Assembly (NCBI GenBank): GCA_030684405.1
Contig: JAUXYA010000032.1
Location: forward strand, 238,764 to 302,763
Reading direction: 5' to 3'
From: Burkholderiales bacterium
Lineage (GTDB): Bacteria; Pseudomonadota; Gammaproteobacteria; Burkholderiales; SG8-41
DNA length: 64,000 nt
The position numbers and the translations under genes are program-made. Positions 38,769 to 58,482 of this stretch are shown here, one piece after another (position 1 is the first letter of the stretch; each line of letters starts with the position of its first letter). Below the pieces are notes generated by a model that worked only from the letters and a program-made list of their open reading frames with translations, searched no databases and was not told where the DNA came from.

Positions 38769-39746
38769 TCAGCGCGTGACCGGTGTCGCGGGCGGCAACG
38801 CCAGCCCGCGTTCGGCGGCAAGCTGTCGCAGGCGGTCGGGGTAATCGGAAATGATGCCATCGACACTCCAATCGATCATGCGCGCAATGTCCGCCGGACT
38901 GTTGACGGTCCACACCACCACTTTGAGATCCAACTGCCGTGCTTCCCGCAGCTGCTCGCGGGTCAACTCGGCGAAATGAGGCGACCATACGGCGCCTCCG
39001 GCCGCTTTCACCATTCGCGCCACGGAGCCGCCGTAATCGCCGACATGAAAGCCGGCCGTCCACGGTGATGAACTGTCGTGCGCGCGGATGTTGTCCAGCC
39101 ATGGCTGCTGCACGGTCAGGTATACCGTGGCAATATCCGGGGCTTCGCGCTGCACCACCTGCAGCGTGCGCCAGTCGAAGGACTGTATCGTAACCCGCGA
39201 TTCCAGACCTTCCCGCCGGATCAGCTCGATCAGCGCGCGTGCAAACGCCTCGGGTGACGGCGTCAGCCCCGGCCGCTCCGGAGAAATTTTGGTTTCGATG
39301 TTGAATCGCACCACCGCGTTGCCTGCCTGGCGGGCGAGAGCGAACACGTCCGTGAGCCGGGGAATGCGCGCACCGTCAACTGGCTGTTGTTCGGGAAAGC
39401 GCTGCACATATTGAGTCAGCTGACGGATGCGGCCGACATCATAGGCCTGCAACTCTCCCCAAGTCAGCGCATGGATGGCGAGATCCTGGCGGGAGATCCA
39501 TGCGCCGTCGGGACCGCGGGTGATGTCGGGGTTGAGGGTGGCATCGTGGCTGACCACGACCACACCGTCGCGGGTGACGACGGTATCCAGTTCAAGGGTG
39601 CTGACGCCGAGGGACAGGGCGCGGGCAAAGGCCGGGAGGGTGTTCTCCGGCAGCAGGCCGCGGGCACCGCGATGGCCCTGCAGATCGAGGCCCGCCGCGC
39701 TCCCTGCGACCATCAGCAGTACTGTGGCAAGCAGGGTCTGGCGCAT
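38769..39746 (-). CDS. Glycerophosphodiester phosphodiesterase (secreted)
   Basis: Signal peptide and GDPD motif HRGARGLLPENTLPAF; 325 aa. Confidence 0.85.
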   Translation of the reverse strand: MRQTLLATVLLMVAGSAAGLDLQGHRGARGLLPENTLPAFARALSLGVSTLELDTVVTRDGVVVVSHDATLNPDITRGPDGAWISRQDLAIHALTWGELQAYDVGRIRQLTQYVQRFPEQQPVDGARIPRLTDVFALARQAGNAVVRFNIETKISPERPGLTPSPEAFARALIELIRREGLESRVTIQSFDWRTLQVVQREAPDIATVYLTVQQPWLDNIRAHDSSSPWTAGFHVGDYGGSVARMVKAAGGAVWSPHFAELTREQLREARQLDLKVVVWTVNSPADIARMIDWSVDGIISDYPDRLRQLAAERGLALPPATPVTR

Positions 39747-39758
39747 GCGGCCTTCATG

Positions 39759-40466
39759 TCACTCGCCGGCGGCGAGGAAGGAGGTCAGGCGCCAGCCGCC
39801 CTCGCCTTTGCGGAAGCAGGCCAGATGTTCGAGCGGGCTGCGTATGTGCTCTTCGGGGATGAAGCCCTCGCGCTCCCCGGCACGGATCTTCACCCATTTC
39901 TGCCGGTTGTCGGGGTCGCTGTCAGCTGTTTCCCAGTCAGTGACGCGCACGATGGAGTGGCCGAGGTTCGCCAGAATCTCTAGGCTGCCCGAAGGCCCGG
40001 CGCGCAAAGCGGTTTCCCGCGCGGTGATCGCACCGTATTCGTGGGGATCCACATTCCTGGGCCAGTGTGGCAACACATAGGGTGCGCACAGGCTGCGCGG
40101 CATTTTTTCATGGCTGTACCAGGCCGTGCCGAGGTGCAGCGCGCGAGGCAGTTCGCGCCATAGCGGACTATCCACGGCATCGACGTCCCACTGACGCATG
40201 AATTCCTCGATTCCGGAGGGACGGTCGATGCCGTTGCGCACGTTGCGGGCGACGATGCCGAGCACGAATTTTTGGTCACGTGCCTGCAAGGCCTGCAGCA
40301 ATTGTTCGCGGAAACGCGTCCATGACGGATCTCCCGCCGCCTCATCGCGCGGTGCAAAAACCCCGTCTTGGGGTTTGGCTGGCGGCTTCTTAGGCAGGGC
40401 TTCTGCCGCAATGGCTGGCATCGCGACCAGCAGTAGCGCGCAGATCACGCGGTACAAGATGTGCAT
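39759..40466 (-). CDS. Secreted hypothetical protein with SH3-like C-terminal region
   Basis: Signal peptide; the C-terminal segment resembles bacterial SH3 (…WVKIRAGEREGFIPEEHI…). No confident family assignment. Confidence 0.5.
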   Translation of the reverse strand: MHILYRVICALLLVAMPAIAAEALPKKPPAKPQDGVFAPRDEAAGDPSWTRFREQLLQALQARDQKFVLGIVARNVRNGIDRPSGIEEFMRQWDVDAVDSPLWRELPRALHLGTAWYSHEKMPRSLCAPYVLPHWPRNVDPHEYGAITARETALRAGPSGSLEILANLGHSIVRVTDWETADSDPDNRQKWVKIRAGEREGFIPEEHIRSPLEHLACFRKGEGGWRLTSFLAAGE

Positions 40467-40683
40467 CAGAATTCCTCGAAGCTACCTTAGTAGTAGTCAA
40501 AAACGGGCTCTACCACTTTTGGGTGATTCCCGGTCTTGCGGCAGATTGCCCGAACGGCGATGCAGGTGTCGAATTACCTTAGTGCAGCTTCGGCAACACG
40601 GTCATCGAATTCCCGCAAGCCTATGAAGGGCGCTATCTTAAGCGCCGCTGGAGGGGTGCACAACCGGGAACGCCTGGACGGAC

Positions 40684-41391
40684 TCAGCCTGCCAGAGCGC
40701 GCAGATGTTGGACCGCGGCGTCGCGCGAATCAATGACCCGCTGGCGTGCGATGCGCTCCGCGGCGTCGCCGTCGCCGGCGCGAATCGCCAGCAGCAGACT
40801 TTGCCAGTTTTGCACCGACTGCTGTCGGCGCTGCGGCGTAGAGAGCCCGAGCCTCGTATAACGCACGGTCTGCACCGCGAGCGAGCCGAGGATGGCTTGC
40901 AGGCGATGGTTGCCAGCGGCTTGGGTCAGCAGCCGGTTCAGGCGCAACACGATGTCGATGTATTCGTCGCCAGGGCCGGGTAGAGCAGCGGTTTGGGCCA
41001 GTTTTTCGATGTCCAGCTCCAGTGTGGGGACCAATTCGGCCCGATGCGGCCCCTCAGCAATCAGGCGGTCACGCAGGCCGTTGAGCATGGCGCGGATATC
41101 GAAGATTTCGTTGACCTCTTCAATGCTGGGATTGGTGACCTGCGCGCCGCGCCGCGGCAGGATCATCACCAGCCCGTCTTTTTCAAGCAGCCGCAACGCT
41201 TCGCGTACCGGACCGCGGCTGACTTCGAACTCCTCGGCGACGCTCTGTTCCATGACGCGCTGGCCCGGACTGTAGGTGCCGGACACGATGCGCTCGGACA
41301 GCCGGGCAGCGATCTGCTCGGGCAGCGACTGAGTCAGCGGCGCTGACTGGCGCAGCGGCGGGAACATATCTGCGGCGGGGTTGGCGGGCAT
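40684..41391 (-). CDS. GntR/FadR-family transcriptional regulator (FCD ligand domain)
   Basis: N-terminal winged-HTH …QSVAEEFEVSRGPVREALRLLEKDGLV… and a helical C-terminal domain. It is divergent from the carboxylase operon. Confidence 0.85.
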   Translation of the reverse strand: MPANPAADMFPPLRQSAPLTQSLPEQIAARLSERIVSGTYSPGQRVMEQSVAEEFEVSRGPVREALRLLEKDGLVMILPRRGAQVTNPSIEEVNEIFDIRAMLNGLRDRLIAEGPHRAELVPTLELDIEKLAQTAALPGPGDEYIDIVLRLNRLLTQAAGNHRLQAILGSLAVQTVRYTRLGLSTPQRRQQSVQNWQSLLLAIRAGDGDAAERIARQRVIDSRDAAVQHLRALAG

Positions 41392-41465
41392 GGCAAACCG
41401 ATCTGGGAAAGGAGCAGGTTCAGTGGGGCTAATGCAATATGGACACCCTAGCCCTCATTTGTAGT

Positions 41466-41511
41466 ATTGTCAACAATCTTCTTGACAACAATGTGTGGTC
41501 GAGCATAGCAT
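41466..41511 (+). promoter_or_regulatory. Candidate operator plus sigma70 promoter for the carboxylase operon
   Basis: Inverted repeat ATTGTCAA-N8-TTGACAA(c), also readable as direct repeats TTG[T/A]CAACAAT 15 bp apart. The second half is a perfect -35 TTGACA (41482-41487) with a weak -10 TAGCAT 18 bp downstream. Confidence 0.35.
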
Positions 41512-41548
41512 TCAATCCGACACTTTCCCTATTTCTGAGGAGTTCCAT

Positions 41549-41770
41549 ATGGCCCGCATCGAAGTCAAATCTGAAATTACCGGTACCGTCTGGCAGCTTA
41601 AGTCCAAGCCTGGTGACAAAGTTGAAGGTGGCGATACCCTGATCGTGATCGAGTCCATGAAAATGGAAATCCCGGTGATTACCGAGGACGGCGGCACTGT
41701 TACAGAAATCCTGGTCAAGGAAAAAGACCCCGTATCTGAGGGGCAGGTAGTTGCCATTATCGAAGGGTGA
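41549..41770 (+). CDS. Stand-alone biotinyl/lipoyl carrier domain protein (BCCP-like, 73 aa)
   Basis: Biotinyl-domain sequence with the attachment motif …VIESMKMEIPV…. ATG at 41549 follows GAGGAG. It lacks the N-terminal region and linker of AccB. Confidence 0.8.
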   Translation: MARIEVKSEITGTVWQLKSKPGDKVEGGDTLIVIESMKMEIPVITEDGGTVTEILVKEKDPVSEGQVVAIIEG

Positions 41771-41836
41771 ATCCACCGTAGTTGTTAAAAAGTGAGCGCA
41801 TGCTCTTCTCTCAAGTGTGTGTACACATTGAGAATG

Positions 41837-41854
41837 TAACTATTTGTTTTTAAA
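41837..41854 (-). repeat. AT-rich 18-mer motif copy g (minus strand reads TTTAAAAACAAATAGTTA)
   Basis: Same family. It is an exact 14-nt inverted copy of 2131-2144 and ends 22 nt upstream of the CT-A ATG, which has no obvious SD. Confidence 0.7.
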
Positions 41855-41875
41855 TAATATTTATTAAAACGGGCT

Positions 41876-43444
41876 ATGAGCTGGCAACCTGAAATAGACG
41901 AATTGCACCGCCGGCGCCAATTGGCGGAGGCCTGTGGTGGTCCGGATGCCGTGGCCAAGCATCATGCCCAAGGCAAGTTGACCGTGCGTGAGCGCATTGC
42001 CGGACTCACTGATCACGGCTCATTTCGTGAAATCGGCAAACTCGCTGGCAAAGCCAAATACGATGCCAACGGCCAGCTGACTGGCTTCGAACCCGCGCCT
42101 TATGTGATGGGTGTGGCACGGATTGATGGTCGACCGGTGGCGATAGGCGGCGAGGATTACACGATTCGCGCTGGCACCGGATTCGGTAGCGACCGGCGCA
42201 AGGGTGGGCAGGGTGGTTTCATCGAAGACCTTGCTTACGAATACCGAATTCCGCTGGTCAATCTGATCGACGGCACTGGCGGTACGGTCAATACCGCCAA
42301 GCGCAAGGGCTACACCGTGGTGCCGGGTTATGGCCAAGACGGCATGGAGCGCTCCGCCGATTTGCTGGGCATCGTGCCGGTGGTCAGTGCGGTGATGGGT
42401 ACCACCGCGGGCGGACCGTCGATGCGTGCGATCCTGTCACACTGGTCGATCATGGTCAAAGGCAGCGGGCAGATTTTTGCTGCCGGACCGCCGGTGGTCG
42501 AACGCGCGTTCGGCCACAAATTGCACAAGGATGAACTCGGCGGCACCAAGGTTGCGGTCGACACCGCAGGTACCATCGACAACGTCGCTGAAAACGAGCA
42601 GGACTGCTTTGAACAGATCCGCCGCTTTCTGTCGTACATGCCGCAGAACGTGTGGGAATTGCCCCCGCAGGTGGATTGCGGCGACCCGGTGGATCGCTGC
42701 GAGGACGCGTTGGCCAGCATCGTGCCGCGCTCGAATCGCCAAGCCTACAACATGAAGAAGCTGCTGGGCCTGATCGTCGACCGCGATTCATTGTTCGAGA
42801 TCCAGCCGACTTTCGGCAAGGCCGTGATCACCTCGCTGGCGCGGATGAATGGCAAGGTCGTCGGCATTGTCGCCAGCAACCCGATGGTCGGCGGCATCAT
42901 GGATTTCAAGGCGGCGCGCAAGCAGGGCCACTTCACCGAACTCTGCGACATGTTCAACATTCCGATCATCCTGTTCGCGGATATCCCGGGCCTGATGGTC
43001 GGCGTCGAGTCCGAGTCAGATGCAATCCTGCGTGAAGGAGTGCGTGCCCGCTACATCGGATTCCAGGTCAGTGTGCCGGTGTTTTCAGTGCTGATCCGCA
43101 AATGTTATGGCGTGGCCGGCGGTGGATTCATCGACCGCGGCGGCCTCAATTTCAAGATCGCTTGGCCCTCGGCTGAATGGGGTTCGCTACCGGTCGAAGG
43201 CGGTGTCAAGGCGGCGTACCGCCGCGAAATCGAACGCGCAGCGGATCCAGCCGCACGCGAGCAGGAACTCGAGGCCGAGTTGAAGCAACTCGCTTCGCCA
43301 TTCCGCACCGCCGAAGCTTTTGCCATCGAAGACATCATCGATCCGCGCGAGACGCGACCCTACCTCTGCCAGTTCATTGACACCCTGCAGGGTAGGCTGC
43401 GTTCGCAGCTCGGTCCGAAATTCAAAAGCGGCGTCAGGCCCTGA
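41876..43444 (+). CDS. Acyl-CoA carboxylase carboxyltransferase subunit (paralog A)
   Basis: 522 aa with full-length PccB/AccD5-type two-domain crotonase-fold carboxyltransferase similarity. Confidence 0.88.
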   Translation: MSWQPEIDELHRRRQLAEACGGPDAVAKHHAQGKLTVRERIAGLTDHGSFREIGKLAGKAKYDANGQLTGFEPAPYVMGVARIDGRPVAIGGEDYTIRAGTGFGSDRRKGGQGGFIEDLAYEYRIPLVNLIDGTGGTVNTAKRKGYTVVPGYGQDGMERSADLLGIVPVVSAVMGTTAGGPSMRAILSHWSIMVKGSGQIFAAGPPVVERAFGHKLHKDELGGTKVAVDTAGTIDNVAENEQDCFEQIRRFLSYMPQNVWELPPQVDCGDPVDRCEDALASIVPRSNRQAYNMKKLLGLIVDRDSLFEIQPTFGKAVITSLARMNGKVVGIVASNPMVGGIMDFKAARKQGHFTELCDMFNIPIILFADIPGLMVGVESESDAILREGVRARYIGFQVSVPVFSVLIRKCYGVAGGGFIDRGGLNFKIAWPSAEWGSLPVEGGVKAAYRREIERAADPAAREQELEAELKQLASPFRTAEAFAIEDIIDPRETRPYLCQFIDTLQGRLRSQLGPKFKSGVRP

Positions 43445-43464
43445 TTATCCAAAGGAGAATTGCA

Positions 43465-44448
43465 ATGAAAAAAATCATCTTCAACGTGCTGACCGGCGCC
43501 TGTGTATTGCTGGCGGCAACGGCGGCCCCGGCGCAGACTGCGTGGAAGCCGGAACGCAATGTTGAAATTATTTCCGGCACCGCCGCCGGTGGTGCCGTGG
43601 ACCGTGCCAACCGCGCGGTGCAGCGCATCTGGCAGGAAAAGAAAATCGTCGACGTCAGCACCACAGTGATGAACAAGCCGGGGGGTGGCAACACCATCGC
43701 CTGGAACTACATTAACCAGCATGCCGGCGATGGTCACTATGTTTCGATTGCGCCGTTCACGCTGCTCACCAACAAACTGGTCGGCACCAGCCCAATGACC
43801 TGGAGTGATTTCACGCCGATTTCATTGCTGTTCAACGAGTACATGACGGTGGCGGTGCGGGCGGATTCGCCAATCAAAACCGGTGCCGATCTCATCGAAC
43901 GCCTGAAAAAGGATCCTTCTTCGCTATCGATCGCCGTGGCCAGCACCCTCGGCAACCATATCCACATCGGCATTGCCAAGGCCATGAAGGCCGGCGGCGT
44001 CGACATCCGCAAGATGAAAGTGATTGCCTTCAAATCCTCGGGAGAATCGATGACCAATCTGCTGGGTGGCCATATCGACGTCGTGTCTTCAAGTACGCCG
44101 AATGTCGTCGCACAACTGCAGGCCGGCAAGATCCGTGTCATTGCTATTTCATCGGCGCAACGCATGTCTGGGGTATTCGCGACGGTACCCACCTGGAAAG
44201 AGCAGGGAATCGACGGCGTGTTTTCCGCATCCCAGGGTGCCATTGGACCCAAAGGGCTGAATGCCGGCCAGATTGCCTTCTGGGAAGGGGCATTCCAGAA
44301 ACTGTCTCAATCTGACGAGTGGAAAAAAGAACTGGCCGCGAGTTACTGGGATTCCAATTTCCTGTCAAGCAGGGAGACCGCGAAATTTTATGAAACGCAG
44401 GCAGCCGAACTGCGCAACATACTGATGGACATCGGGCTCATCAAATAA
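43465..44448 (+). CDS. Bug/TctC-family periplasmic substrate-binding protein 1
   Basis: Signal peptide and typical Bug N-terminus (…NVEIISGTAAGGAVDRANR…); 327 aa. Confidence 0.85.
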   Translation: MKKIIFNVLTGACVLLAATAAPAQTAWKPERNVEIISGTAAGGAVDRANRAVQRIWQEKKIVDVSTTVMNKPGGGNTIAWNYINQHAGDGHYVSIAPFTLLTNKLVGTSPMTWSDFTPISLLFNEYMTVAVRADSPIKTGADLIERLKKDPSSLSIAVASTLGNHIHIGIAKAMKAGGVDIRKMKVIAFKSSGESMTNLLGGHIDVVSSSTPNVVAQLQAGKIRVIAISSAQRMSGVFATVPTWKEQGIDGVFSASQGAIGPKGLNAGQIAFWEGAFQKLSQSDEWKKELAASYWDSNFLSSRETAKFYETQAAELRNILMDIGLIK

Positions 44449-44451
44449 GTC

Positions 44452-45675
44452 GTGAGCACAATCCCACAGGGTCCGCTGTCTGGTTATCGCGTGCTGGAAA
44501 TGGGATCCACCATCGCCGGGCCGTTTTGCGGGCGGCTTTTCGCCGATTTCGGAGCCGAGGTCATCAAGATCGAACCACGCGAAGGTGATGGCGTACGTTC
44601 GGCGGGTAAGCGCTACAGGGGCAAGTCGCTGTACGCAGCGAGCATTCTGCGCAACAAAAAACTGATATCCGTCGATCTGCGCCATGCCAAGGGCCAGGAA
44701 TTGGTGCGCAGGCTGGTGCCGCAATGCGATGTGGTGATAGAGAATTTCCGACCCGGCGGGCTGGAGAAATGGGGGCTGGGTTATGCCGATCTGTCCCGCC
44801 TGCGTCCGGACCTGGTGATGGTGCGCATCAGCGGCTTCGGGCAGACCGGCCCATACAGTGCACGCCCCGGCTACGGCATCATCTGCGAAGCGGCAAGCGG
44901 GCTGCGCCATCTGACCGGCGATCCGGACCGGCCACCGGCGCGCGTTGCCGTGGCGCTGACGGATTACATTACCGGATTGTATGCCGCGTTCGGCGCGGTG
45001 ATGGCGCTGCTGCATCGCAATCGTACCGGTGAAGGGCAATATGTCGATGCGGCGTTGGCCGAAGGCGCATTCAGTTTTATAGAACCGCACATACCCGCCT
45101 TCGACAAGCTCGGCGAAATCGCCAACCGTGCCGGTTCCGGGATTGCCGGAAGTGTGCCGAACAATCTGTATGCAACCGCCGATGGACAGTTCGTGCACAT
45201 CCAGGCAGCGCAGAACACGGTATTCCGCCGATTTGCGCCGGCCATTGGTCGACCCGAACTGTCCGCCGACGAGCGTTTTATCAACGCGATTGCGCGCGGC
45301 CGGCATCAGCAGGAACTGGATGACATCGTGGCGGAATGGGCCGGCAAACATACGCTGGCGGATATCCGCAAGGCGCTGGATGCGGTGGATGTTCCGGCGA
45401 TGGGCATCAATAACGTCGCCGACATATTCCTCGACCCGCATTTTCGTGAACGCGGCATGCTCGCTGAAGTGCCCGATGATGATCTCGGCGCGGTGACGTT
45501 GACCGGTGTCGTGCCCAAACTTTCGCGTACCCCCGGGCATATCCGCAAAAGCGGCGGCCGCGTTGGACAGGACACGCGCAGCGTGCTGAAACAGCTGGGT
45601 CTCAGCGCCGCCGAGCTGCAGGCCTTGGAAGCCGAGGGCGTGGTCTACTGCGATTCCGGGTCCGCCGCCGCATGA
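44452..45675 (+). CDS. Family III CoA-transferase (CaiB/BaiF type)
   Basis: N-terminal PLSGYRVLEMGSTIAGPFCGRLFADFGAEVIKIE signature and a GTG start; 407 aa. Confidence 0.88.
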   Translation: MSTIPQGPLSGYRVLEMGSTIAGPFCGRLFADFGAEVIKIEPREGDGVRSAGKRYRGKSLYAASILRNKKLISVDLRHAKGQELVRRLVPQCDVVIENFRPGGLEKWGLGYADLSRLRPDLVMVRISGFGQTGPYSARPGYGIICEAASGLRHLTGDPDRPPARVAVALTDYITGLYAAFGAVMALLHRNRTGEGQYVDAALAEGAFSFIEPHIPAFDKLGEIANRAGSGIAGSVPNNLYATADGQFVHIQAAQNTVFRRFAPAIGRPELSADERFINAIARGRHQQELDDIVAEWAGKHTLADIRKALDAVDVPAMGINNVADIFLDPHFRERGMLAEVPDDDLGAVTLTGVVPKLSRTPGHIRKSGGRVGQDTRSVLKQLGLSAAELQALEAEGVVYCDSGSAAA

Positions 45676-45682
45676 GTTGATA

Positions 45683-45700
45683 TACCTATTTGTTTTAAAA
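45683..45700 (-). repeat. AT-rich motif copy h (minus strand reads TTTTAAAACAAATAGGTA, weaker)
   Basis: Shares CTATTTGTTTT(T/A)AAA with 41840-41854 and has two mismatches to the family consensus. It lies 41 nt upstream of the CT-B ATG. Confidence 0.5.
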
Positions 45701-45741
45701 ATTTTTCATCAGTTTCCAGTTGTTAATCCGGAGCAGTCATC

Positions 45742-47277
45742 ATGGCATTTGAAGCACTGTTGCAGGAGTACGAAGCGCGCCGCGCCAGGGCGTTGGCCGG
45801 CGGCGGCGAAGAGAAATACGCCAGGCGCACGGCCAAGGGTGTGTGGAATGCGCGTCAGCGCATCGACTATCTGATGGATCCAGGCTCGTTCATCGAATCC
45901 GGGCTGTTTGCCTCCTCCGGCGTCTATCCGGAGCAGGAAGCTGAAACCCAGACCGACGGCAAGCTGGCCGGATTCGGCCGCATCCAGGGCCGCGACGTTT
46001 GCGCCGTGATCAACGATTTCACCGTCAAAGGCGCATCCACCTCAGCCACCAACAGCAAGAAAATCGCGCATATGAAGCGCACCGCGATCGAGCGCGGCAT
46101 GCCGCTGGTGCTGATCGGTGAATCCACCGGTGCGCGCTTGCCTGACGCGATGGGCTCTCGCGGCATGGGTCTGCTGCTCGGTAATGACAACACCCAGTTT
46201 CGCCGCCTGCGCGAAGTGCCCACCGCGGCCGCGGCTTTCGGCCCTTCCTTCGGTTCCTCGACCTGGCTGATGTGTCAGTCCGACTTCGCGATCATGCACA
46301 AGAGCGCGATCATGGCGGTGTCCAGTCCCGGACTGGTGTCGATGGCGCTGGGCGAGAAGGTTTCTGCCGAGGAACTTGGCGGGTGGCGCCTGCATGCTGA
46401 AACCACGGGGCTGATTGACCAGTTTGCCGACACCGAGGAAGAGGTGTTCGACCAGATCAAGAAATTCCTGTCGTACATGCCCAACCACCACCGTGAAGCG
46501 CCGGCCGACGCGCCGGTGCCGGCGGGTTCCGGTGCCGACATGGAGAAAGTGTTCGACATCCTGCCCGAGAGCCGCACCCAGGTGTATGACATGAAGCGGG
46601 TGATCAAGTGCATCGTCGACAAGGACTCGCTGTTTGAAATGAAGCCGCGTTTCGGCAAGAGCGCAGTTACCGCGCTGGCTCGTCTCGGCGGCAAATCGGT
46701 GGGCATCATCGCCAACAACCCGTTGCATCGCGGCGGCGCACTCGACGCCGATGCCTGCCGCAAGATCGTCGATTTCATCGTGATGTGCGATTCGTTCAAC
46801 ATCCCCTTCGTGATGCTGGTCGACACCCCGGGCTTCCAGATTGGCACCGAAGCCGAACGCGCCGGTGCACCGGGGAAGATCATGAATTTCATGAACGCGA
46901 TGACCCTGGTTACCGTGCCGCACCTGACGGTGATCGTGCGCAAGAGTTATGGTCGTGCCTACGTCTGTATGGGCGGCGGACGACATTCCGACGAAGTGGC
47001 GGCCTGGCCCAGCGCCGAAGTCAGCTTCATGAGTCCGGATTTTGCGACCAAGATCGTCCACGGCGTCGGCCACGGCGAGCCGGGCTTCGAGGAAGCGCTG
47101 GCCGATATTCGCAAGGGCGCCGATGTCTGGGGCCTGGCCGCGGTGTACGCCACGCAGTCGGTGATCAAGCCGCAGGATACCCGCGACTACCTGGTCCGCA
47201 TGCTCGACATCTACAGGCTGCGCATGACCAAAGGCGTCGGACAGCACCTGATGCGCAGCTGGCCGACGAGTTATTGA
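45742..47277 (+). CDS. Acyl-CoA carboxylase carboxyltransferase subunit (paralog B)
   Basis: 511 aa of the same PccB-type family as 41876-43444 but clearly divergent. SD GGAG lies upstream. Confidence 0.88.
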   Translation: MAFEALLQEYEARRARALAGGGEEKYARRTAKGVWNARQRIDYLMDPGSFIESGLFASSGVYPEQEAETQTDGKLAGFGRIQGRDVCAVINDFTVKGASTSATNSKKIAHMKRTAIERGMPLVLIGESTGARLPDAMGSRGMGLLLGNDNTQFRRLREVPTAAAAFGPSFGSSTWLMCQSDFAIMHKSAIMAVSSPGLVSMALGEKVSAEELGGWRLHAETTGLIDQFADTEEEVFDQIKKFLSYMPNHHREAPADAPVPAGSGADMEKVFDILPESRTQVYDMKRVIKCIVDKDSLFEMKPRFGKSAVTALARLGGKSVGIIANNPLHRGGALDADACRKIVDFIVMCDSFNIPFVMLVDTPGFQIGTEAERAGAPGKIMNFMNAMTLVTVPHLTVIVRKSYGRAYVCMGGGRHSDEVAAWPSAEVSFMSPDFATKIVHGVGHGEPGFEEALADIRKGADVWGLAAVYATQSVIKPQDTRDYLVRMLDIYRLRMTKGVGQHLMRSWPTSY

Positions 47278-47365
47278 GTCTTCGTGAAACGCGGAGCGCG
47301 CACCCAACACCCAATGGCCGCGGTCCACGTTTCTTTTTTCATTCTGTTTCCGGAATCCGCCCCCG

Positions 47366-48715
47366 ATGTTCAATAAAGTACTGGTTGCAAACCGCGGCGC
47401 TGTCGCTGTCCGCGTGCTGCGTGCGCTGAACGAGATGAATATCCACTCGGTTGCAGTGTATTCAGAGGCCGATCGCCACGCCCCTTACCTCGAAATGGCA
47501 AGTCAAACCTTTGCCATCGGAGCCGCTCCCGCGCGCGAGAGTTACCTCAACCAGGACACCATCATCGATGTCCTGAAAAGTTCCGGTGCGGACGGCCTGC
47601 ATCCCGGTTACGGCTTTCTTTCTGAAAACGCTTCCTTCGCACAAAAGGTGATTGACGCTGGCGGGAGTTTCATCGGGCCGTCGCCGAAATGGATAGACGC
47701 GATGGGCCACAAGACGCGCGCCCGGGATATCGCCGCGCAGTACGGCATGCCGATGTCCCAAGGCTCCGGCGTGCTACCCGATGACAACGACGCCATTATC
47801 GCGGCTGCCCGCAAAATCGGCTTCCCTGTGCTGGTGAAGCCGGCGGGCGGCGGTGGCGGTATCGGCATGCTGCCGGCGAAAGACGAGGCGGAACTGCTCA
47901 CAGCGGTGGAGCGCTCGCGCTCGATGGCGGGCCGCGGTTTCGGCACCACCGAAGTCTATCTTGAGAAATTGATCGAGCGGCCGCGCCATGTCGAATTCCA
48001 GATTCTCGGCGATCAGCACGGCGGAGCCATGCACCTGTTTGAACGTGACTGCTCCACCCAGCGCCGCAACCAGAAGGTGATCGAGGAGGCGCCGGGTCCG
48101 GAGATTCCGCGCGACAAGGCGGTTGCCGTCGCCGATCAGATTGCCGGCATCATGCGCAGCATGGGCTACGACAACATCGGCACCGTCGAAATGCTGCTCG
48201 GCGCCGACGGCTCCTTCAACTTCCTCGAAATGAACACGCGGCTGCAGGTCGAGCACGGCGTCACCGAGGAAGTCACCGGCGTTGACCTCGTCCGTGCGCA
48301 AATCCGTTCCGCCGCCGGTGAAAAACTCGCCGACATCCTGCCGGGTAAACCGGAAGTGAAGGGCCATGCGATCCAGGCGCGGGTTTATGCTGAAGACCCG
48401 AAGAATTTTTTCCCGTCGCCGGGCAAGTTGACGGTGTTCCGGCCACCCGAAGGCGAGGGCATCCGTGTCGACACCGGTTATGCCGAAGGCAGGGATGTGA
48501 CGCCGCATTACGACCCGATGATTGCCAAAGTCATCGTGCGCGCGGCGACCCGCGCCGCGGCGATCGACAAGCTGATCGAGGCGCTCAACGGTTTTGACAT
48601 CCAGGGTCTGAAGCACAACATTCCGGCGGTGGTGAACATCCTGAACTCAGCGCAGTTTCGTGAAGGGCGGGTGCACACCGGCATTATTGGCGAAGTGACT
48701 GGTAGAAAAATATGA
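47366..48715 (+). CDS. Biotin carboxylase (AccC-type, no fused BCCP)
   Basis: 449 aa starting MFNKVLVANRG with an ATP-grasp core; full-length AccC similarity. Confidence 0.93.
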   Translation: MFNKVLVANRGAVAVRVLRALNEMNIHSVAVYSEADRHAPYLEMASQTFAIGAAPARESYLNQDTIIDVLKSSGADGLHPGYGFLSENASFAQKVIDAGGSFIGPSPKWIDAMGHKTRARDIAAQYGMPMSQGSGVLPDDNDAIIAAARKIGFPVLVKPAGGGGGIGMLPAKDEAELLTAVERSRSMAGRGFGTTEVYLEKLIERPRHVEFQILGDQHGGAMHLFERDCSTQRRNQKVIEEAPGPEIPRDKAVAVADQIAGIMRSMGYDNIGTVEMLLGADGSFNFLEMNTRLQVEHGVTEEVTGVDLVRAQIRSAAGEKLADILPGKPEVKGHAIQARVYAEDPKNFFPSPGKLTVFRPPEGEGIRVDTGYAEGRDVTPHYDPMIAKVIVRAATRAAAIDKLIEALNGFDIQGLKHNIPAVVNILNSAQFREGRVHTGIIGEVTGRKI

Positions 48716-49419
48716 TTACAAATCAAGAAGATACAATCGTTTCGAAGGCGCGCCGCGCAGGCCGCAATGCACTCGACGAAAACGCGGGCAAGCAGCTGCT
48801 TGCGAGCTATGGCATCCGCGTGCCGCAATCGCGGGTGGCAAAAGGACTTGCCGATGTCGACGCCGTGATGAATGGCCTGCAGCTGCCGGTGGTGGTCAAG
48901 GTGATGTCGCCGGACATCCTGCACAAGAGCGATGCCGGCGGCGTCAAAGTCAATCTGCAGTCTGCCGCCGAAGTGAAATCGGCGATCGAGGGCATGCTCA
49001 ATGCGCCGAAAATCAAGGGTGCGCGCATCGAGGGCTTCCTGGTCGAGGAAATGGCGCCGGCCGGCCATGAACTGGTGATCGGCGGTTTGCGCGATCCGCA
49101 GTTCGGGCCATTGGTGATGGTTGGCCTCGGCGGCATTTTTGTCGAGATCCTCAAGGACGTTTCGTTCCGGCTGTGCCCGATCGCGCGCATCGATGCCGAG
49201 GAGATGCTGGCCGAACTCAAGGGTGTGGCGATACTGAAGGGCGCTCGTGGCAGCAAACCCGCATCGCAGGAAGCGATCATCGACGTGCTGCTCAAGGTGG
49301 GCGGCGAAAACGGTCTCCTGATGCAGCATGCCGCTGACATCAGCGAAGCCGACATCAATCCGCTGATCGTGTCCGACACCGCGGCCGTAGCCGTCGACGC
49401 CCGCTTCATCCTCGGATGA
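48712..49419 (+). CDS. ATP-grasp domain protein (beta-like part of ADP-forming acyl-CoA synthetase)
   Basis: 235 aa resembling the ATP-grasp_5 module of acetate--CoA ligase (ADP-forming). ATGA overlap with the biotin carboxylase stop. Confidence 0.75.
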   Translation: MITNQEDTIVSKARRAGRNALDENAGKQLLASYGIRVPQSRVAKGLADVDAVMNGLQLPVVVKVMSPDILHKSDAGGVKVNLQSAAEVKSAIEGMLNAPKIKGARIEGFLVEEMAPAGHELVIGGLRDPQFGPLVMVGLGGIFVEILKDVSFRLCPIARIDAEEMLAELKGVAILKGARGSKPASQEAIIDVLLKVGGENGLLMQHAADISEADINPLIVSDTAAVAVDARFILG

Positions 49420-49435
49420 TCACAGGAAATTAAGC

Positions 49436-50872
49436 ATGAACATCATCGAACAATTCACCCCCCTGTTTGCACCGAAAACGGTCGCAGTGATCGGCGCATC
49501 GACCAAGGGCAATGCGTTGCCCAACGTGTTCATTCGCCGCATTCGTGAGTTCGGATTCAGCGGCGACATCTACCCGATCCATCCCGGCGCCGCCGAAATC
49601 GACGGACTGACCGCCTACAAGTCGCTGGCGGACACGCCCAAGCCGGTGGACTACGCCTACATCGCGGTGTCCGGCGCGCAAATTCCGGGCATGCTTGCCG
49701 CGGCTAAGGGCCATGTACGTTTTGCGCAAGTCATCTCCAGCGGCTTCGGAGAGGTTGACGAGGGCAAGGGTCTGCAGGACGAACTGGTGCAGGCGGCAAA
49801 GGCCGGCGGCATGCGCCTGCTGGGGCCGAACTGCCTCGGCATCTACACGCCGCGCGGCCGTGTCACCTTCGCCGAAATCGGTCCGAAAGAGGTCGGCCAT
49901 GTCGGCATCGTGTCGCAAAGCGGCGGATTGGGTACCGACATCATCCGCCGCGGCCTGTCGCGCGGCGTAAAGTTTTCAGGACTGGTTACCGTCGGCAACT
50001 GTGCCGATGTCACGCCCTCTGATCTGCTCGAGTTCTACCTTGCCGATCCGCAAACGAAAGTGATCGGCATGTACATCGAAACCGCCAAGGACGGACGCCG
50101 GCTGTTCGACATCCTGCGCAATGCCGGGGCTTCGAAGCCGGTGGTGATTCTCAAGGGCGGCCGCACCCAGCAGGGCCTTGCCGCCGCCGCGTCGCACACC
50201 GGTTCGCTTGCCGGTGATGACCGCGTGTGGGTAGCGCTGGCGCGGCAAACCGGCTGTATGCTGGCTGACACGCTCGACCACTTCATCGACACGCTGCTGA
50301 TTTTCCAAACCCTGACGCCGCGGCCGCAGAGGCCGACGCGTAAGGTCGTGCTGTTCGGTAACGGCGGCGGTACCAGCGTTCTCGCCACCGACTATTTCGC
50401 GCGTCTCGGACTCGACGTGCTGCCTTTCGAACAGGGCACTATCGACGCGCTGGCGGCGCTGAAGCTGCCGCCGGGTACCAGCATCACCAATCCGGTCGAC
50501 TGTCCGGTGGGTACGCTGCAGCAGGATGACGGCCGTGTCGCCGAAAAGATCCTCGACATCATTTGCGGCCAGGGCAAACCCGAGGCGCTGGTGATGCACC
50601 TCAACCTGTCGGCCTTTGTCGGCCGCACCAAGCCGGAAGTTCTCGACAACCTGATCGCCGCTGCGATGCGGGTGCAGGAAAAATATCCGGAGCAATCGCA
50701 CTTCATCCTGGTGCTGCGCTCCGACGGCGAGCCGGCTCTGGAGGCGCGCAAGCGCGAGTTCCGCGACAAGGCGGTGGCACTGGGTGTGCCGGTGTACGAC
50801 GAGATGGCCAACGCCGGCCATCCGCTCGAGGCGCTGGCGAGTTTCGAGCGCTACAAGGCGGCCCGCGCCTGA
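49436..50872 (+). CDS. CoA-binding / succinyl-CoA-synthetase-like alpha part of ADP-forming acyl-CoA synthetase
   Basis: N-terminal CoA-binding Rossmann fold (…KTVAVIGAS…), an SQSGGLG motif, and a phosphohistidine-loop-like AASHTGSLAG; 478 aa. Confidence 0.8.
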   Translation: MNIIEQFTPLFAPKTVAVIGASTKGNALPNVFIRRIREFGFSGDIYPIHPGAAEIDGLTAYKSLADTPKPVDYAYIAVSGAQIPGMLAAAKGHVRFAQVISSGFGEVDEGKGLQDELVQAAKAGGMRLLGPNCLGIYTPRGRVTFAEIGPKEVGHVGIVSQSGGLGTDIIRRGLSRGVKFSGLVTVGNCADVTPSDLLEFYLADPQTKVIGMYIETAKDGRRLFDILRNAGASKPVVILKGGRTQQGLAAAASHTGSLAGDDRVWVALARQTGCMLADTLDHFIDTLLIFQTLTPRPQRPTRKVVLFGNGGGTSVLATDYFARLGLDVLPFEQGTIDALAALKLPPGTSITNPVDCPVGTLQQDDGRVAEKILDIICGQGKPEALVMHLNLSAFVGRTKPEVLDNLIAAAMRVQEKYPEQSHFILVLRSDGEPALEARKREFRDKAVALGVPVYDEMANAGHPLEALASFERYKAARA

Positions 50873-52071
50873 TGGCTTACCAGCACGGATTTCGCGCCAC
50901 GGGCTATCCTCTGCGTCTGTACAGCGGCAGGGACGCGCTGGAGAACCTGCCGGCAGAACTGAAACGTCATCGTTCGCAGCGGGCTTTTGTGATCTGCGGC
51001 CGCAGCGTGTCGCGCAAAACCGGGCTCGTTGACCGCATCGCGGCGATTCTCGGGCCGGCCTATGCCGGTCGTTATGACGAAATCGAGAAGGACACGACGC
51101 TTGCCTCGGTGCAGGCGGCGACGGCGGCGGCGCGGGCGGCGGATGCCGATCTGCTGATCGGCGTTGGCGCCGGCAGCGTGCTCCAGGGCACGCGCGTGGT
51201 GGCGATACTGCTCGCCGAGCAGGCACCGGTGGAGCGGTTGATCACGCAGTATCCCGACAACGCGCCGGCGATCAGTCCCAAGCTGCTGGCGCCGAAGCTG
51301 CCGATCATCAATGTGCTGACCGCGGCGACTACCGCACAGAACCGCGCGGGCTCGGCGGTGAAGGATCCCGCGCGGCCGAACCGCATGGAATTCTTTGATC
51401 CCAAGACGCGGCCTGTCGCGCTGTTCTGGGATGAAGAAGCGCTGTTGACCGCGCCGGTGTCACTGGCGTGCACCACCGGCACCTCGGTGTTCTGGCGCGC
51501 GATCATGAATCTCGGCGCGCCGCGCATGGCACCGTTGTCGGAGGGCGACCGCCTGCAGGCTTTCCGTCTGGCGCGCGGCGCCTATCCACGCATGGCTGAC
51601 CCGGCAGATGCCGCAGCGCGGCTAGAAATGTGTGCCGCTGCATTTTTGCAGAACCGCGATGCCGACGACGGTGGTGCACTGACCGAGAAACACTGGCCGG
51701 CGCGGGTCACCTATGCGCTGGCAACCGCGCTGTTCAACCGCCATGCCCACGTCGGACAGGGTGAAGCCAACTCGGCGCTGACCGCGACCGTGATCCGCCA
51801 CTTCGGCATGCGCGATCCTGAAGCGATGGCGCTGATTGCCGAGGCATTTGAAGCCACCGACTCGCGTTCACCGCATGAGCGTGCTGCGGATGCCGTGGAG
51901 CGCGCCTTTGCGCAGGCCGGCATGCCCGTGCGGCTGGGTGAACTGGGCATACCGCGGGACAGCCTGGGTGACGTGCTGGAAGCTTCGCTGAAAAACTTCA
52001 ATGCCGATCCGAAACGCGAATTCCTGCGCGAGAGTGATGTACTGATGGCCACCCTGCAGGCCGCCTGGTAG
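50872..52071 (+). CDS. Iron-containing alcohol dehydrogenase family protein
   Basis: 399 aa with Fe-ADH-like sequence (…AFVICGRSV…GVGAGSVLQG…). Its start overlaps the upstream stop by 1 nt (TGATG). Confidence 0.7.
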   Translation: MAYQHGFRATGYPLRLYSGRDALENLPAELKRHRSQRAFVICGRSVSRKTGLVDRIAAILGPAYAGRYDEIEKDTTLASVQAATAAARAADADLLIGVGAGSVLQGTRVVAILLAEQAPVERLITQYPDNAPAISPKLLAPKLPIINVLTAATTAQNRAGSAVKDPARPNRMEFFDPKTRPVALFWDEEALLTAPVSLACTTGTSVFWRAIMNLGAPRMAPLSEGDRLQAFRLARGAYPRMADPADAAARLEMCAAAFLQNRDADDGGALTEKHWPARVTYALATALFNRHAHVGQGEANSALTATVIRHFGMRDPEAMALIAEAFEATDSRSPHERAADAVERAFAQAGMPVRLGELGIPRDSLGDVLEASLKNFNADPKREFLRESDVLMATLQAAW

Positions 52072-52192
52072 GACAGTCCTCCACAGTGCGGTCTGGTACT
52101 TGACGCTACCGGACATGCCGCAGAAACTTGATCGAACAAAAACAGCGACATCAGTCGCAGTTCAGTCAGATTTATCCGAGAGGAGCATACCC

Positions 52193-53212
52193 ATGCATGC
52201 GCTAAGTGTTTCAGGCAGTCTGTCCCTGCGGTCCTTGCTTACCCCATCACGGTTGCTGTGTTGTGGTTTCGCGCTGTTCGCCGCAATGTTGATTCCGGCT
52301 GCCTCGGCACAGCAGTTTCCGCAGCGCCCTGTTCGTTTCATCGTTCCGCTCGCGCCGGGCGGCGGCGTGGACATTACTGCGCGAACCGTCGCACCGCGAC
52401 TCAGCGCGTTGTGGGGGTACACCGTCGTCGTCGACAACAGGCCCGGCGGTACCGGGGCCATCGGGCTGGAAACGGCCGCCCGCGCCCAGCCGGATGGACA
52501 CACCATTGTGCTGATTACCGGGACCCATACCGCACGCCGTGCCACGCATCATGGGCGTCTGTCGTATGACCTGCTGAAGGATTTCAGGGCGGTAACCCAG
52601 ATGACCCGTCAATCGTACGTGCTGGTTCTGCATCCCGGTGTCGCGGCAAAATCGATTCCTGAACTGCTGGCGCTGGCAAAAGCCAAACCCGGCGGTCTGA
52701 CCTATGGTTCTGCCGGACAGGGAAGCCTGCAGCACCTGTCCGGAGCACTGCTGGGTGCGCTGACGAATACCAACTTGCTGCATGTGGCCTACAAAGGTGG
52801 CGGTCCCGCGCTCGCCGATGTGCTCGGTGGACAGATCAGCATGGTGTTTGCCACGCCTCTCGAATCGGTTCCTCATATCAAAAGCGGACGCCTTCGCGCC
52901 CTCGCGGTCACCAGCCCCAAACGCTCCCCTGCATTGCCTGAGTTGCCGTCAATCGCGGAAACCGGCGTCACGGGATACGAGGTGACCAATTGGTACGGCG
53001 TGCTTGCCCCCGTGGCGACTCCGGGGGCCGTCGTCAACATTCTTAACCGGGGAATTATTGATGTCCTGCGCACGCCGGAAATGCAGGAGCGTTTCAAGGC
53101 TGACGGTGTGGAACTGGTGGGGTCGACGCCCGGGGAGTATCAGAAACATATTTCCGCTGAAATCGTGAAGTGGGAAGGGGTCGTGAAAAAAGCGGGAATC
53201 CAGGTGGATTGA
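52193..53212 (+). CDS. Bug/TctC-family periplasmic substrate-binding protein 2
   Basis: Signal peptide and PVRFIVPLAPGGGVDITAR signature. ATG at 52193 follows GAGGAG. Confidence 0.85.
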   Translation: MHALSVSGSLSLRSLLTPSRLLCCGFALFAAMLIPAASAQQFPQRPVRFIVPLAPGGGVDITARTVAPRLSALWGYTVVVDNRPGGTGAIGLETAARAQPDGHTIVLITGTHTARRATHHGRLSYDLLKDFRAVTQMTRQSYVLVLHPGVAAKSIPELLALAKAKPGGLTYGSAGQGSLQHLSGALLGALTNTNLLHVAYKGGGPALADVLGGQISMVFATPLESVPHIKSGRLRALAVTSPKRSPALPELPSIAETGVTGYEVTNWYGVLAPVATPGAVVNILNRGIIDVLRTPEMQERFKADGVELVGSTPGEYQKHISAEIVKWEGVVKKAGIQVD

Positions 53213-53247
53213 TGATGACAATGCCAGATCGGACAAAGGAGCAGAAG

Positions 53248-54832: not shown

Positions 54833-55228
54833 ATGGAAACGCTGCATACCGGCATGACACTCACCGTTGAACGCGAGGTCACCGAGGCGATGACCACGCA
54901 GCGTGGCGAATACAAGATTTTTTCCACGCCGAACATGGTGCAGTTCTGCGAAAGTGCCGCCGGACAACTGGTGGCGCCGCATCTCAAGCCGGATCAGGGA
55001 CAGGTCGGCATGGTGGTGACCATCCGCCACATGGGGCCGACCCCGATGGGCAAACGTGTGCGCGCCGAAGTGGAACTCACCGGCATTGACCGGCGCCGCC
55101 TGAGTTTCAAGATCAGGGTTTTCGATGACGTGGAGCAGGTCGGTGAATGCGATCACGACCGTTTCGTCGTCGATCTCGACAAGTATCAGGCGAAGCTCAA
55201 ACGGAAAATTGAGAGCTCAAGCAATTAA
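54833..55228 (+). CDS. Hot-dog fold thioesterase (FlK / fluoroacetyl-CoA-thioesterase-like family)
   Basis: 131 aa. The pattern …FSTPNMVQFCESAA…GMVVTIRHMGPTP…RRRLSFKIRVFD…G…HDRFVV… resembles FlK-type thioesterases. Confidence 0.65.
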   Translation: METLHTGMTLTVEREVTEAMTTQRGEYKIFSTPNMVQFCESAAGQLVAPHLKPDQGQVGMVVTIRHMGPTPMGKRVRAEVELTGIDRRRLSFKIRVFDDVEQVGECDHDRFVVDLDKYQAKLKRKIESSSN

Positions 55229-58453: not shown

Positions 58454-58482
58454 GCTTGGGTTCTCCTCGTTTTAAGTGCGGA

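Follow-up and report, generated by a model that had tools for sequence, protein, structure and literature searches.

A conserved Burkholderiales operon for a putative split acyl-CoA carboxylase with two divergent carboxyltransferases and a minimal biotin carrier

Introduction

Few CO2-fixing enzymes have been studied as thoroughly as the biotin-dependent acyl-CoA carboxylases, and the sole structurally established enzyme with mixed carboxyltransferases (CTs) is the mycobacterial mycolic-acid carboxylase. The Yng operon of Bacillus subtilis encodes a CT (YngE), a biotin carboxylase (BC; YngH) and a 73-aa carrier (YngHB, or BLAP; PDB 1Z6H). The core of the mycobacterial LCC (long-chain acyl-CoA carboxylase) is AccD4(2)AccD5(4), formed by two CTs that are 49% identical, and two AccE subunits tether eight copies of AccA3, in which BC and biotin carboxyl carrier protein (BCCP) are fused (PMC13012033, PMC13612425). 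Here, we analyze a locus of a Burkholderiales bacterium in which two full-length CTs, CT-A and CT-B, are encoded together with a free 73-aa carrier and an unfused BC. The locus lies in a 64,000-nucleotide stretch of DNA (GenBank assembly GCA_030684405.1, contig JAUXYA010000032.1, positions 238,764 to 302,763), hereafter the window.

The mycobacterial AccD4/AccD5 enzyme had been named as a hetero-CT precedent in a preliminary description of this locus, and rightly so (PMC13012033, PMC13612425). A second precedent named there, XccABC, was rejected, as XccABC and HpeCBA, the latter acting on phosphorylated acetophenones, each contain a single CT next to one BC and one BCCP (PMC9618137). Comparison of the locus with its relatives indicates that it represents a widespread, uncharacterised variant of biotin-dependent acyl-CoA carboxylase, with a pair of ancient CT paralogs, a split BC and a minimal carrier.

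Results

CT-A and CT-B form separate deep branches

CT-A and CT-B are full-length PccB-type paralogs and clearly divergent, as first described, sharing 32% identity over their full length. Against the closest NCBIfam model (TIGR01117), CT-A scores 334 bits and CT-B 315 bits, compared with a cut-off of 998.8, and no equivalog was matched. Both proteins are 30-36% identical to Streptomyces coelicolor PccB and Thermotoga maritima 1VRG, which are themselves ~60% identical to each other. For CT-A, the identity to both references is 30-34% per domain, and its best PDB score is 287 bits. N- and C-domain identities to the references revealed no asymmetry between whole domains. In a neighbour-joining tree (root at the β-subunit of methylcrotonyl-CoA carboxylase (MCC), no bootstrap), the canonical propionyl-CoA carboxylases (PCC) and acetyl-CoA carboxylases (ACC), the CT-A clade and the CT-B clade occupy three separate deep branches. 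The phylogenetic placement that had been proposed as a check thus puts both proteins outside the characterised PCC, ACC and MCC families, on the basis of the NCBIfam cut-offs, identities of at most 36% and the tree. Among the best 8,000 candidates per query, more than 7,000 database proteins are related to CT-A and more than 5,000 to CT-B at E≤1e-20, other PccB-type CTs included. The public names of the homologues are generic, such as 'propionyl-CoA carboxylase', 'methylmalonyl-CoA carboxyltransferase' and 'acetyl-CoA carboxylase carboxyltransferase component'.

For the active-site motifs of 80 CT-A and 56 CT-B orthologs, we took the numbering of S. coelicolor PccB from the PDB alignment. CT-A has a canonical N-site, A181-G182-G183, with G182 in 80/80 and G183 in 76/80 orthologs. 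Its C-site reads RKCYG-V-A-G-G-G in the window and follows an invariant ortholog motif, R-K-C-Y-G-[V/M]-A-G. Relative to PccB, Val or Met replaces G419, Gly replaces Y421, and Gly, Met or Ala replaces D422, with A420 kept. The N-site of CT-B is F-G-S-S-x-W in the window and invariantly [F/Y]-G-S-S-x-W in orthologs: A181 is replaced by Phe or Tyr and G183 by Ser (56/56), while G182 and A420 are kept. The C-site of CT-B (RKSYG-R-A-Y-V in the window) follows a near-canonical ortholog motif, R-K-S-Y-G-[R/Q/L]-A-[Y/V], with Arg, Gln or Leu at position 419 and Val, Ile or Leu at position 422 (Ser in 3/56). Both family signatures are kept down to ~50% identity.

Pairwise comparison of the window with 38 loci gave median ratios of nonsynonymous to synonymous substitution (dN/dS) of 0.075 for CT-A and 0.053 for CT-B. 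Because these ratios are low and the signatures invariant, neither CT is decaying, and we rejected the view of one copy as a decayed duplicate that the preliminary description had raised. Both CTs look functional and are under strong purifying selection. Diacovich et al. reportedly concluded in 2004 that the oxyanion holes of PccB are formed by backbone amides, so side-chain swaps at these positions need not inactivate the enzyme.

CT-A and CT-B are paired across relatives

A scan of species-representative genomes with CT-A yielded 80 loci, onto which the window proteins were mapped by tblastn; co-occurrence counts rest on the 39 loci with enough flanking DNA. A CT-B-clade gene is found in 34 of these 39 (35 if one truncated at the L070 edge is included), the BCCP gene also in 34, the BC gene in 32, the acyl-CoA synthetase (ACS) in 31 and the CoA-transferase (CoAT) in 13. 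The commonest order, seen in dozens of Burkholderiales metagenome-assembled genomes (MAGs) from lakes, groundwater and soil, consists of a divergent GntR gene followed by BCCP-CTA-CTB-BC-ACSbeta-ACSalpha-FeADH(-Bug-HIBADH), where FeADH is an Fe-ADH-superfamily protein, Bug a solute-binding protein and HIBADH a 3-hydroxyisobutyrate dehydrogenase-like protein. CT-A and CT-B are adjacent in most relatives, with a 34-nt spacing. The two also stay together in other arrangements: Alphaproteobacteria such as Roseovarius pacificus DSM 29589 have CoAT-CTB-BCCP-CTA, Rhodospirillaceae have CoAT-CTA-BC-CTB-ACS, and the Cupriavidus necator N-1 plasmid pBB2 has GntR-Bug-CoAT-BCCP-CT(A-like, 62%)-MaoC-Bug-CT(B-like, 55%)-BC. 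In a neighbour-joining tree, the CT-A and CT-B forms of the subtypes co-diverge, and the partnership would therefore be older than the subtype split. Taken together, the pairing is old and co-inherited.

Four alphaproteobacterial MAGs with the order CoAT-CTB-BCCP-CTA (L064, L066, L067 and L079) have no BC gene within 10 kb on either side of the cluster. In these versions, BC may be provided in trans or may not be needed. An ABC or TRAP-type transporter follows each of these clusters.

Some loci contain a second two-CT module, exemplified by L065 (96-8756) and also seen in L052, L045 and L058, with a divergent form in L042 (136-3205). The module sits immediately upstream of the CT-A operon's GntR gene. 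It encodes two different CT-B-clade paralogs and a BCCP along with a CoA-transferase, Bug proteins and enoyl-CoA hydratases, without a BC of its own. In several L065-type loci, the sole BCCP gene is that of the upstream module. Because some loci hold this second module of two CT-B-clade paralogs, paired CTs seem to be a recurrent theme in the lineage.

A plasmid of Sulfitobacter sp. LC.270.F.C4 (L083) carries a CT-B-clade gene among genes for TctCBA, a CoA-ester lyase, an enolase-superfamily protein, a fused 723-aa ADP-forming acyl-CoA synthetase, BioY, BC, a 74-aa BCCP and MaoC. The host is cultured, and the CT-B-type enzyme could be studied there by itself.

A minimal carrier and a stand-alone biotin carboxylase

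The window operon contains only a single BCCP gene and a single BC gene alongside its two CT genes. As the preliminary description held, the carrier consists of the biotinyl domain only and bears the ESMKME motif, which satisfies the (A/S)MKM pattern of a biotinyl-lysine; biotinylation is predicted from sequence. The protein scores 83.3 bits against NCBIfam NF004547, 'biotin/lipoyl-binding carrier protein' (cut-off 75; profile positions 4-71 of 71). Its best PDB match is B. subtilis BLAP 1Z6H (72 aa, E=1.4e-12), followed by the 1.3S subunit of Propionibacterium transcarboxylase. The carrier thus belongs with the single-domain attachment carriers of the B. subtilis BLAP and Mycobacterium tuberculosis TB7.3 type. 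Since it passes NF004547 and has 1Z6H as its closest solved relative, free carriers of 72-73 aa are a known kind and the small size is not the oddity it had first seemed. A Shine-Dalgarno sequence, GAGGAG, lies 6 nt upstream of the ATG at 41549; this sequence and the upstream TTGACA-18-TAGCAT favour the 73-aa start over the GTG at 41495.

The BC matches Escherichia coli AccC with E about 1e-116. All catalytic motifs were found (VKPAGGGGGIGM, HVEFQ, RRNQKVIEEAP, FLEMNTRLQVEH and ARVYAED), and those around K116, K159 and the Gly-rich loop, H209, K238, E276, E288/N290/R292 and R338 (E. coli numbering) are present. It has no biotinyl domain, and the separate carrier gene lies 5.6 kb upstream. The original account of an unfused, AccC-type BC at this distance holds for its position and lack of fusion; the enzyme is not distant in sequence, being a normal BC encoded directly 3' of CT-B. 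Its stop overlaps the start of the next gene, for the synthetase beta chain, by 4 nt.

A lineage-specific cassette separates CT-A from CT-B

In the window, a Bug gene and a CoA-transferase gene are interleaved between CT-A and CT-B. Their presence had been described correctly, but they form a lineage-specific cassette confined to the nearest relatives and a few variants: Bug stands between CT-A and CT-B only in L001, L002, L003, L005, L063, L068 and few variants. A 400-bp sliding comparison revealed a mosaic. The segment at 42.0-45.6 kb (CT-A, Bug, CoAT) is closest to L001, L068 and L003, which hold the insert, whereas the flanks (38800-41600 and 45600-54000) are closest to L026 and L077, where CT-B directly follows CT-A. 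This mosaic identity profile suggests that the CT-A-Bug-CoAT block was exchanged by recombination. The ancestral order would be BCCP-CTA-CTB-BC, and the 5.6-kb spacing between carrier and BC appears to be the result of the recombined cassette. The best NCBIfam match of the CoA-transferase, succinate--glutarate CoA-transferase, reaches 260 bits, far under the 750 cut-off. In the C. necator N-1 and alphaproteobacterial loci, orthologs of this transferase (55-63% identity) are neighbours of the CT genes.

Seven loci (L034, L037, L038, L047, L054, L058 and L061) have a different cassette exactly between CT-A and CT-B, with genes for a molybdoenzyme, EtfB and EtfA (11647-14759 in L047). The molybdoenzyme belongs to the sulfite-oxidase family, is SoxC/SorA-like but below cut-offs, and has no signal peptide, as expected of a cytoplasmic protein. 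To our knowledge, the pairing of a sulfite-oxidase-family enzyme with an Etf acceptor has not been described. The cassette hints at a sulfite or other oxidation step in some versions of the pathway.

Operon layout and flanking genes

The ORF listing and profile searches delineate a compact gene run at 41549-54168 behind a divergent GntR regulator, with 12 genes listed including the regulator (Table 1). Neighbouring genes in the run overlap by 1-4 nt or are separated by gaps of 3-105 nt. The carrier, both CTs, Bug, CoA-transferase and BC were all recovered where first described, with strong Pfam and NCBIfam statistics. The unit does not end at 48715, as had been supposed; it continues through the synthetase beta and alpha chains, the Fe-ADH-like protein, a second Bug and the HIBADH-like protein.

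Table 1 Features of the carboxylase operon and its control region (window coordinates)
Feature	Position	Strand	Evidence
GntR/FCD-family transcriptional regulator, divergent	40684-41391	-	Pfam GntR E=7.4e-20, FCD E=2.6e-15
Sigma-70-like promoter candidate, TTGACA-18-TAGCAT	41482-41511	+	Consensus scan, 10/12 matches
Minimal biotin carboxyl carrier of 73 aa, made of the biotinyl domain alone (ESMKME)	41549-41770	+	Pfam Biotin_lipoyl E=1.5e-15
CT-A, 522 aa, full-length PccB/12S-type carboxyltransferase (N + C domains)	41876-43444	+	Pfam Carboxyl_trans E=2.9e-89
Bug/TctC periplasmic solute-binding protein (tripartite tricarboxylate transporter)	43465-44448	+	Pfam TctC E=1.9e-29
Family-III (CaiB/BaiF) CoA-transferase	44452-45675	+	Pfam CoA_transf_3 E=3.8e-117
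CT-B, 511 aa, second full-length carboxyltransferase	45742-47277	+	Pfam Carboxyl_trans E=1.9e-97, ACCA E=2.5e-8
Stand-alone AccC-type biotin carboxylase, 449 aa, unfused	47366-48715	+	Pfam Biotin_carb_N, CPSase_L_D2, Biotin_carb_C
ADP-forming acyl-CoA synthetase, beta (ATP-grasp)	48712-49419	+	Pfam ATP-grasp_5 E=3.2e-69
ADP-forming acyl-CoA synthetase, alpha	49436-50872	+	Pfam CoA_binding_2, Succ_CoA_lig; TIGR02717 317 bits vs cut-off 567
Fe-ADH-superfamily protein	50872-52071	+	Pfam Fe-ADH E=9.2e-29
Second Bug/TctC solute-binding protein	52190-53212	+	Pfam TctC E=4.5e-57
Beta-hydroxyacid dehydrogenase, HIBADH- or tartronate-semialdehyde-reductase-like	53212-54168	+	Pfam NAD_binding_2 E=3.1e-43, NAD_binding_11

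The GntR/FCD gene keeps its position in 54 related loci, and its product is likely the repressor or sensor of the operon. Promoter-like sites in the region are as numerous as expected from shuffled sequence, so the promoter candidate is weak.

Adjoining the GntR gene, a gene on the minus strand (39759-40466) encodes a 235-aa protein whose N-terminus resembles a signal peptide and which has no match in Pfam or NCBIfam. Its position is kept in 51 related loci, which may reflect mere chromosomal synteny. Just downstream of the operon lie genes for a FlK-like hot-dog thioesterase (54833-55228, plus strand) and an enoyl-CoA hydratase (56606-57382, minus strand), followed by two further Bug/TctC genes within 57473-59514 (minus strand). 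The window thus holds at least four Bug genes, as is usual in Bug-rich Burkholderiales.

Downstream genes and candidate substrates

The best NCBIfam match of the synthetase beta chain, 3-hydroxypropionate--CoA ligase, scores 193 bits, under the 1300 cut-off. The start of the Fe-ADH-like gene overlaps the synthetase alpha stop by 1 nt, in a translationally coupled arrangement. Its product has GVGAGSVLQ in place of the GGGSxxD nucleotide motif. Alignment with FucO, methanol dehydrogenase and an AdhE-like chain revealed substitutions at three of the four positions of canonical metal ligands (Asp by Ser, His by Trp and His by Gln), with SVFW in place of DAxxH and Gln in place of the late His. These changes are kept in 23 orthologs (60-96% identity), and the protein is probably not a metal-dependent alcohol dehydrogenase. 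The database names of its homologues are all generic. The second Bug gene, found after the Fe-ADH-like gene in ~10 related loci, has an ORF that opens at TTG 52100, with Met 52190 as the likely start. The HIBADH-like protein scores 196 bits against NF008592 (cut-off 397) and starts at 53212 or 53248.

Accessory genes in relatives encode enoyl-CoA hydratases (ECH), MaoC and FadB-like hydratases (L065, L070, L073, L082 and L083) and HMG-CoA-lyase-like and CoA-ester-lyase proteins (L073 and L083). Because of these genes, the substrate class is hinted to be a short (~C3-C6) hydroxy, unsaturated or dicarboxylic acyl-CoA, and not a long-chain or aromatic one.

Several specific substrates were considered but found no support. 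Conversion of 3-hydroxypropionate or malonate semialdehyde, carboxylation of glycolyl-CoA to tartronyl-CoA, and the use of mesaconate or itaconate all need reductase, hydratase or lyase genes that the operon does not contain. Genes required for sulfonates, suggested by the sulfite-oxidase-family and Etf cassette of relatives, are likewise missing from the window operon, as are those for a leucine-like route of gamma-carboxylation, hydration and lyase cleavage, suggested by the ECH, MaoC and lyase genes in L065, L070, L073, L082 and L083.

Occurrence and expression

Metagenomes from groundwater, lake water and oil sands contain near-identical DNA. Among the contigs of one freshwater metatranscriptome, short and patchy ones match CT-A, Bug, CoAT, CT-B, BC and genes downstream of these, with DNA carry-over possible; this is weak evidence for transcription of the operon.

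Discussion

Proposed mechanism

The components of the system are intact, conserved, under purifying selection and co-inherited. We propose that they form a GntR-controlled catabolic operon for a split acyl-CoA carboxylase and for the enzymes that make its CoA-thioester substrate, and we assign this full scenario a probability of roughly 0.6. First, orphan Bug binding proteins of the tripartite tricarboxylate transporter type would capture a small organic acid. The ADP-forming acyl-CoA synthetase would make its CoA thioester; in this lineage, the cassette-borne family-III CoA-transferase could do so alternatively. The stand-alone BC, using ATP and bicarbonate, would carboxylate biotin on the free 73-aa carrier, and the carboxy-biotinyl carrier would bring CO2 to a carboxyltransferase core made of the ancient paralogs CT-A and CT-B. 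The two CTs would share carrier and BC, most likely in a mixed hexamer like that of mycobacterial AccD4/AccD5. Such a hexamer would contain two kinds of site, N(A)/C(B) and N(B)/C(A), providing either two acyl-CoA specificities or one specialised site. That the genes encode a functional two-CT carboxylase system seems to us highly probable; for CT-A and CT-B residing in one mixed particle, the sequence comparisons leave the chances about even.

Several observations weigh against this proposal. L033 reads BCCP-CTA-BC-ACS-FeADH, without CT-B. Two plasmids also carry a single CT: the Variovorax plasmid locus L081 has Bug-CoAT-CT-A-like, with BC and BCCP 6 kb away, and the Rhodococcus plasmid locus L086 has a CT-A-clade CT, a 72-aa carrier and BC. 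Conversely, the Sulfitobacter plasmid locus L083 (7650-22074) has a CT-B-clade CT alone, 62% identical to CT-B. Because single-CT loci occur in both clades, each CT type is probably competent alone. Pfam and NCBIfam identified no AccE-like subunit among the 12 operon proteins, and the gaps between genes, at most 105 nt, are too short to encode one; small ORFs elsewhere in the window were left unscanned. There is also no BC-BCCP fusion that could hold the free 73-aa carrier near the core. The window operon (41549-54168) contains no hydratase or lyase, and its Fe-ADH-like protein is without canonical metal ligands. Full-text literature searches found no characterised homologue and no paper on the cluster.

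Alternative readings

The single-CT loci support an alternative in which homohexamers, CT-A6 and CT-B6, share one BC and the free carrier and perform two separate carboxylations of the pathway. Their substrates could be, for example, a pathway-specific acyl-CoA and the propionyl- or acetyl-CoA derived from it, and the arrangement would resemble that of mycobacterial AccA3, which serves several AccD partners. L033, L081 and L086 for CT-A and L083 for CT-B, each with its own BC and BCCP, are what this reading expects. The company of a MaoC dehydratase and a CoA-ester lyase in L083 fits a CT-B-like enzyme that carboxylates a cleavage product, such as propionyl-CoA. The pockets also differ at the PccB D422 specificity position, which is Val, Ile or Leu in CT-B and Gly, Met or Ala in CT-A. 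However, ancient and tight co-inheritance, adjacency and the alphaproteobacterial CTB-BCCP-CTA sandwich are more typical of subunits of one particle. These arguments are not decisive, and we regard separate homohexamers as somewhat unlikely. If CT-A and CT-B were two separate ordinary short-chain carboxylases, the locus would have routine annotation value only.

At the other extreme, the mixed hexamer may be obligate, with two chemically different interface sites through which a single particle would catalyse two distinct carboxyl transfers, fed by the freely diffusing carrier and with the Fe-ADH-like protein as a dedicated partner. By motif reading, the N_A/C_B site is near-canonical and the N_B/C_A site combines Ser183/Trp186 with Val419/Gly421/Gly422. 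The two transfers could be successive pathway carboxylations or a carboxyl relay (transcarboxylation) between two acyl-CoAs. This reading is unlikely in our estimate; if true, it would be a previously undescribed architecture and reaction in proteobacterial organic-acid catabolism. A related idea, in which complementary half-site degeneration makes N_A/C_B the sole functional site and the heteromer obligate, fits the motifs but is weakened by L033, L081, L086 and L083 and by the lack of N/C asymmetry, and was kept as a minor rival only.

The CTs could also form a transcarboxylase or decarboxylation-coupled pair. One CT would move CO2 from a carboxy-acyl-CoA of malonyl- or methylmalonyl-type to the carrier and the other from the carrier to a second acyl-CoA, with BC needed only for priming or to provide CO2 by another route. 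A set of two different CTs and a carrier does match the transcarboxylase layout, the carrier resembles the 1.3S subunit (its second-best PDB match), and L064, L066, L067 and L079 have no nearby BC gene. Yet BC may lie elsewhere in these four genomes, of which 10 kb on either side of the cluster was covered. More generally, BC is found in 32 of 39 well-flanked loci and in the window directly follows CT-B and overlaps the next gene. We know of no transcarboxylase with two 12S-type CTs, and consider the idea improbable.

Marginally more improbable still is that one CT is a non-catalytic scaffold, a pseudo-enzyme for assembly or carrier docking, so that only one kind of site works. The replacements in CT-B (G183 by Ser, A181 by Phe or Tyr) and CT-A (G419 by Val or Met, Y421/D422 by Gly-Gly) give this some appeal, as an A:B dimer would have one near-canonical site, N(A)/C(B), and one doubly deviant site, N(B)/C(A). 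However, the deviant motifs are invariant despite >45% divergence, dN/dS is very low, and single-CT systems in both clades imply working N(A)/C(A) and N(B)/C(B) sites. The oxyanion holes are made of backbone amides, and the side-chain changes need not inactivate them. Finally, an ordinary PCC and an ordinary ACC lying together by chance, as the public annotation names of homologues would have it, was rejected as having a negligible chance, since these names are automatic, both CTs fall far below the NCBIfam cut-off, are 30-36% identical to the references and branch outside the PCC/ACC clade, and, in contrast to bacterial PCC, BC and a 73-aa carrier take the place of one alpha subunit.

Significance and comparison with known systems

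The two-CT layout with a fully split BC and minimal carrier appears to be ancient and widespread, with hosts that include many freshwater, groundwater and soil Burkholderiales MAGs, some Alphaproteobacteria and cultured strains such as C. necator N-1. Working out the proposed system would extend the carbon metabolism of abundant uncultured freshwater bacteria by a catabolic carboxylation step, test mixed CT hexamers as a general route to two specificities from one BC and carrier, and supply new CT pockets for carboxylase engineering.

Among known enzymes, Propionibacterium transcarboxylase (12S, 5S and 1.3S) also combines two different CTs with a small free carrier. Its 5S subunit, however, is of the pyruvate-carboxylase CT family and not of the 12S type, and it has no BC, which is conserved here. 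E. coli ACC is likewise assembled from a BC, a BCCP and two different CT polypeptides (AccA, AccB, AccC and AccD) that jointly build the active site. There, AccD and AccA are each equivalent to only half of a PccB-type CT, either its N or its C domain, whereas CT-A and CT-B both contain both halves, and the AccB N-terminal region is missing from the 73-aa carrier.

Xcc and Hpe share with the window operon the split BC, BCCP and CT polypeptides in a catabolic cluster, but their carrier is 17 kDa and their substrate a phosphorylated aryl ketone, not a CoA ester. The Yng operon is similar in its free 72-73-aa ESMKME carrier, separate BC and PccB-type CT within an acyl-CoA catabolic operon; it contains a single CT, unlike the operon described here.

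The mycobacterial LCC offers the likeness that one BC and BCCP serve two paralogous full-length PccB-type CTs. Its mixed, two-layer CT hexamer with two specificities has been demonstrated; for CT-A and CT-B, such a hexamer is inferred only. CT-A and CT-B are also more divergent, at 32% identity compared with 49% for AccD4 and AccD5. BC and carrier are separate proteins in the window, whereas AccA3 of LCC is fused and tethered by AccE, for which this operon has no similar gene. LCC is biosynthetic, acting in the formation of mycolic acids, whereas the carboxylase proposed here would belong to a GntR-regulated catabolic operon of Proteobacteria.

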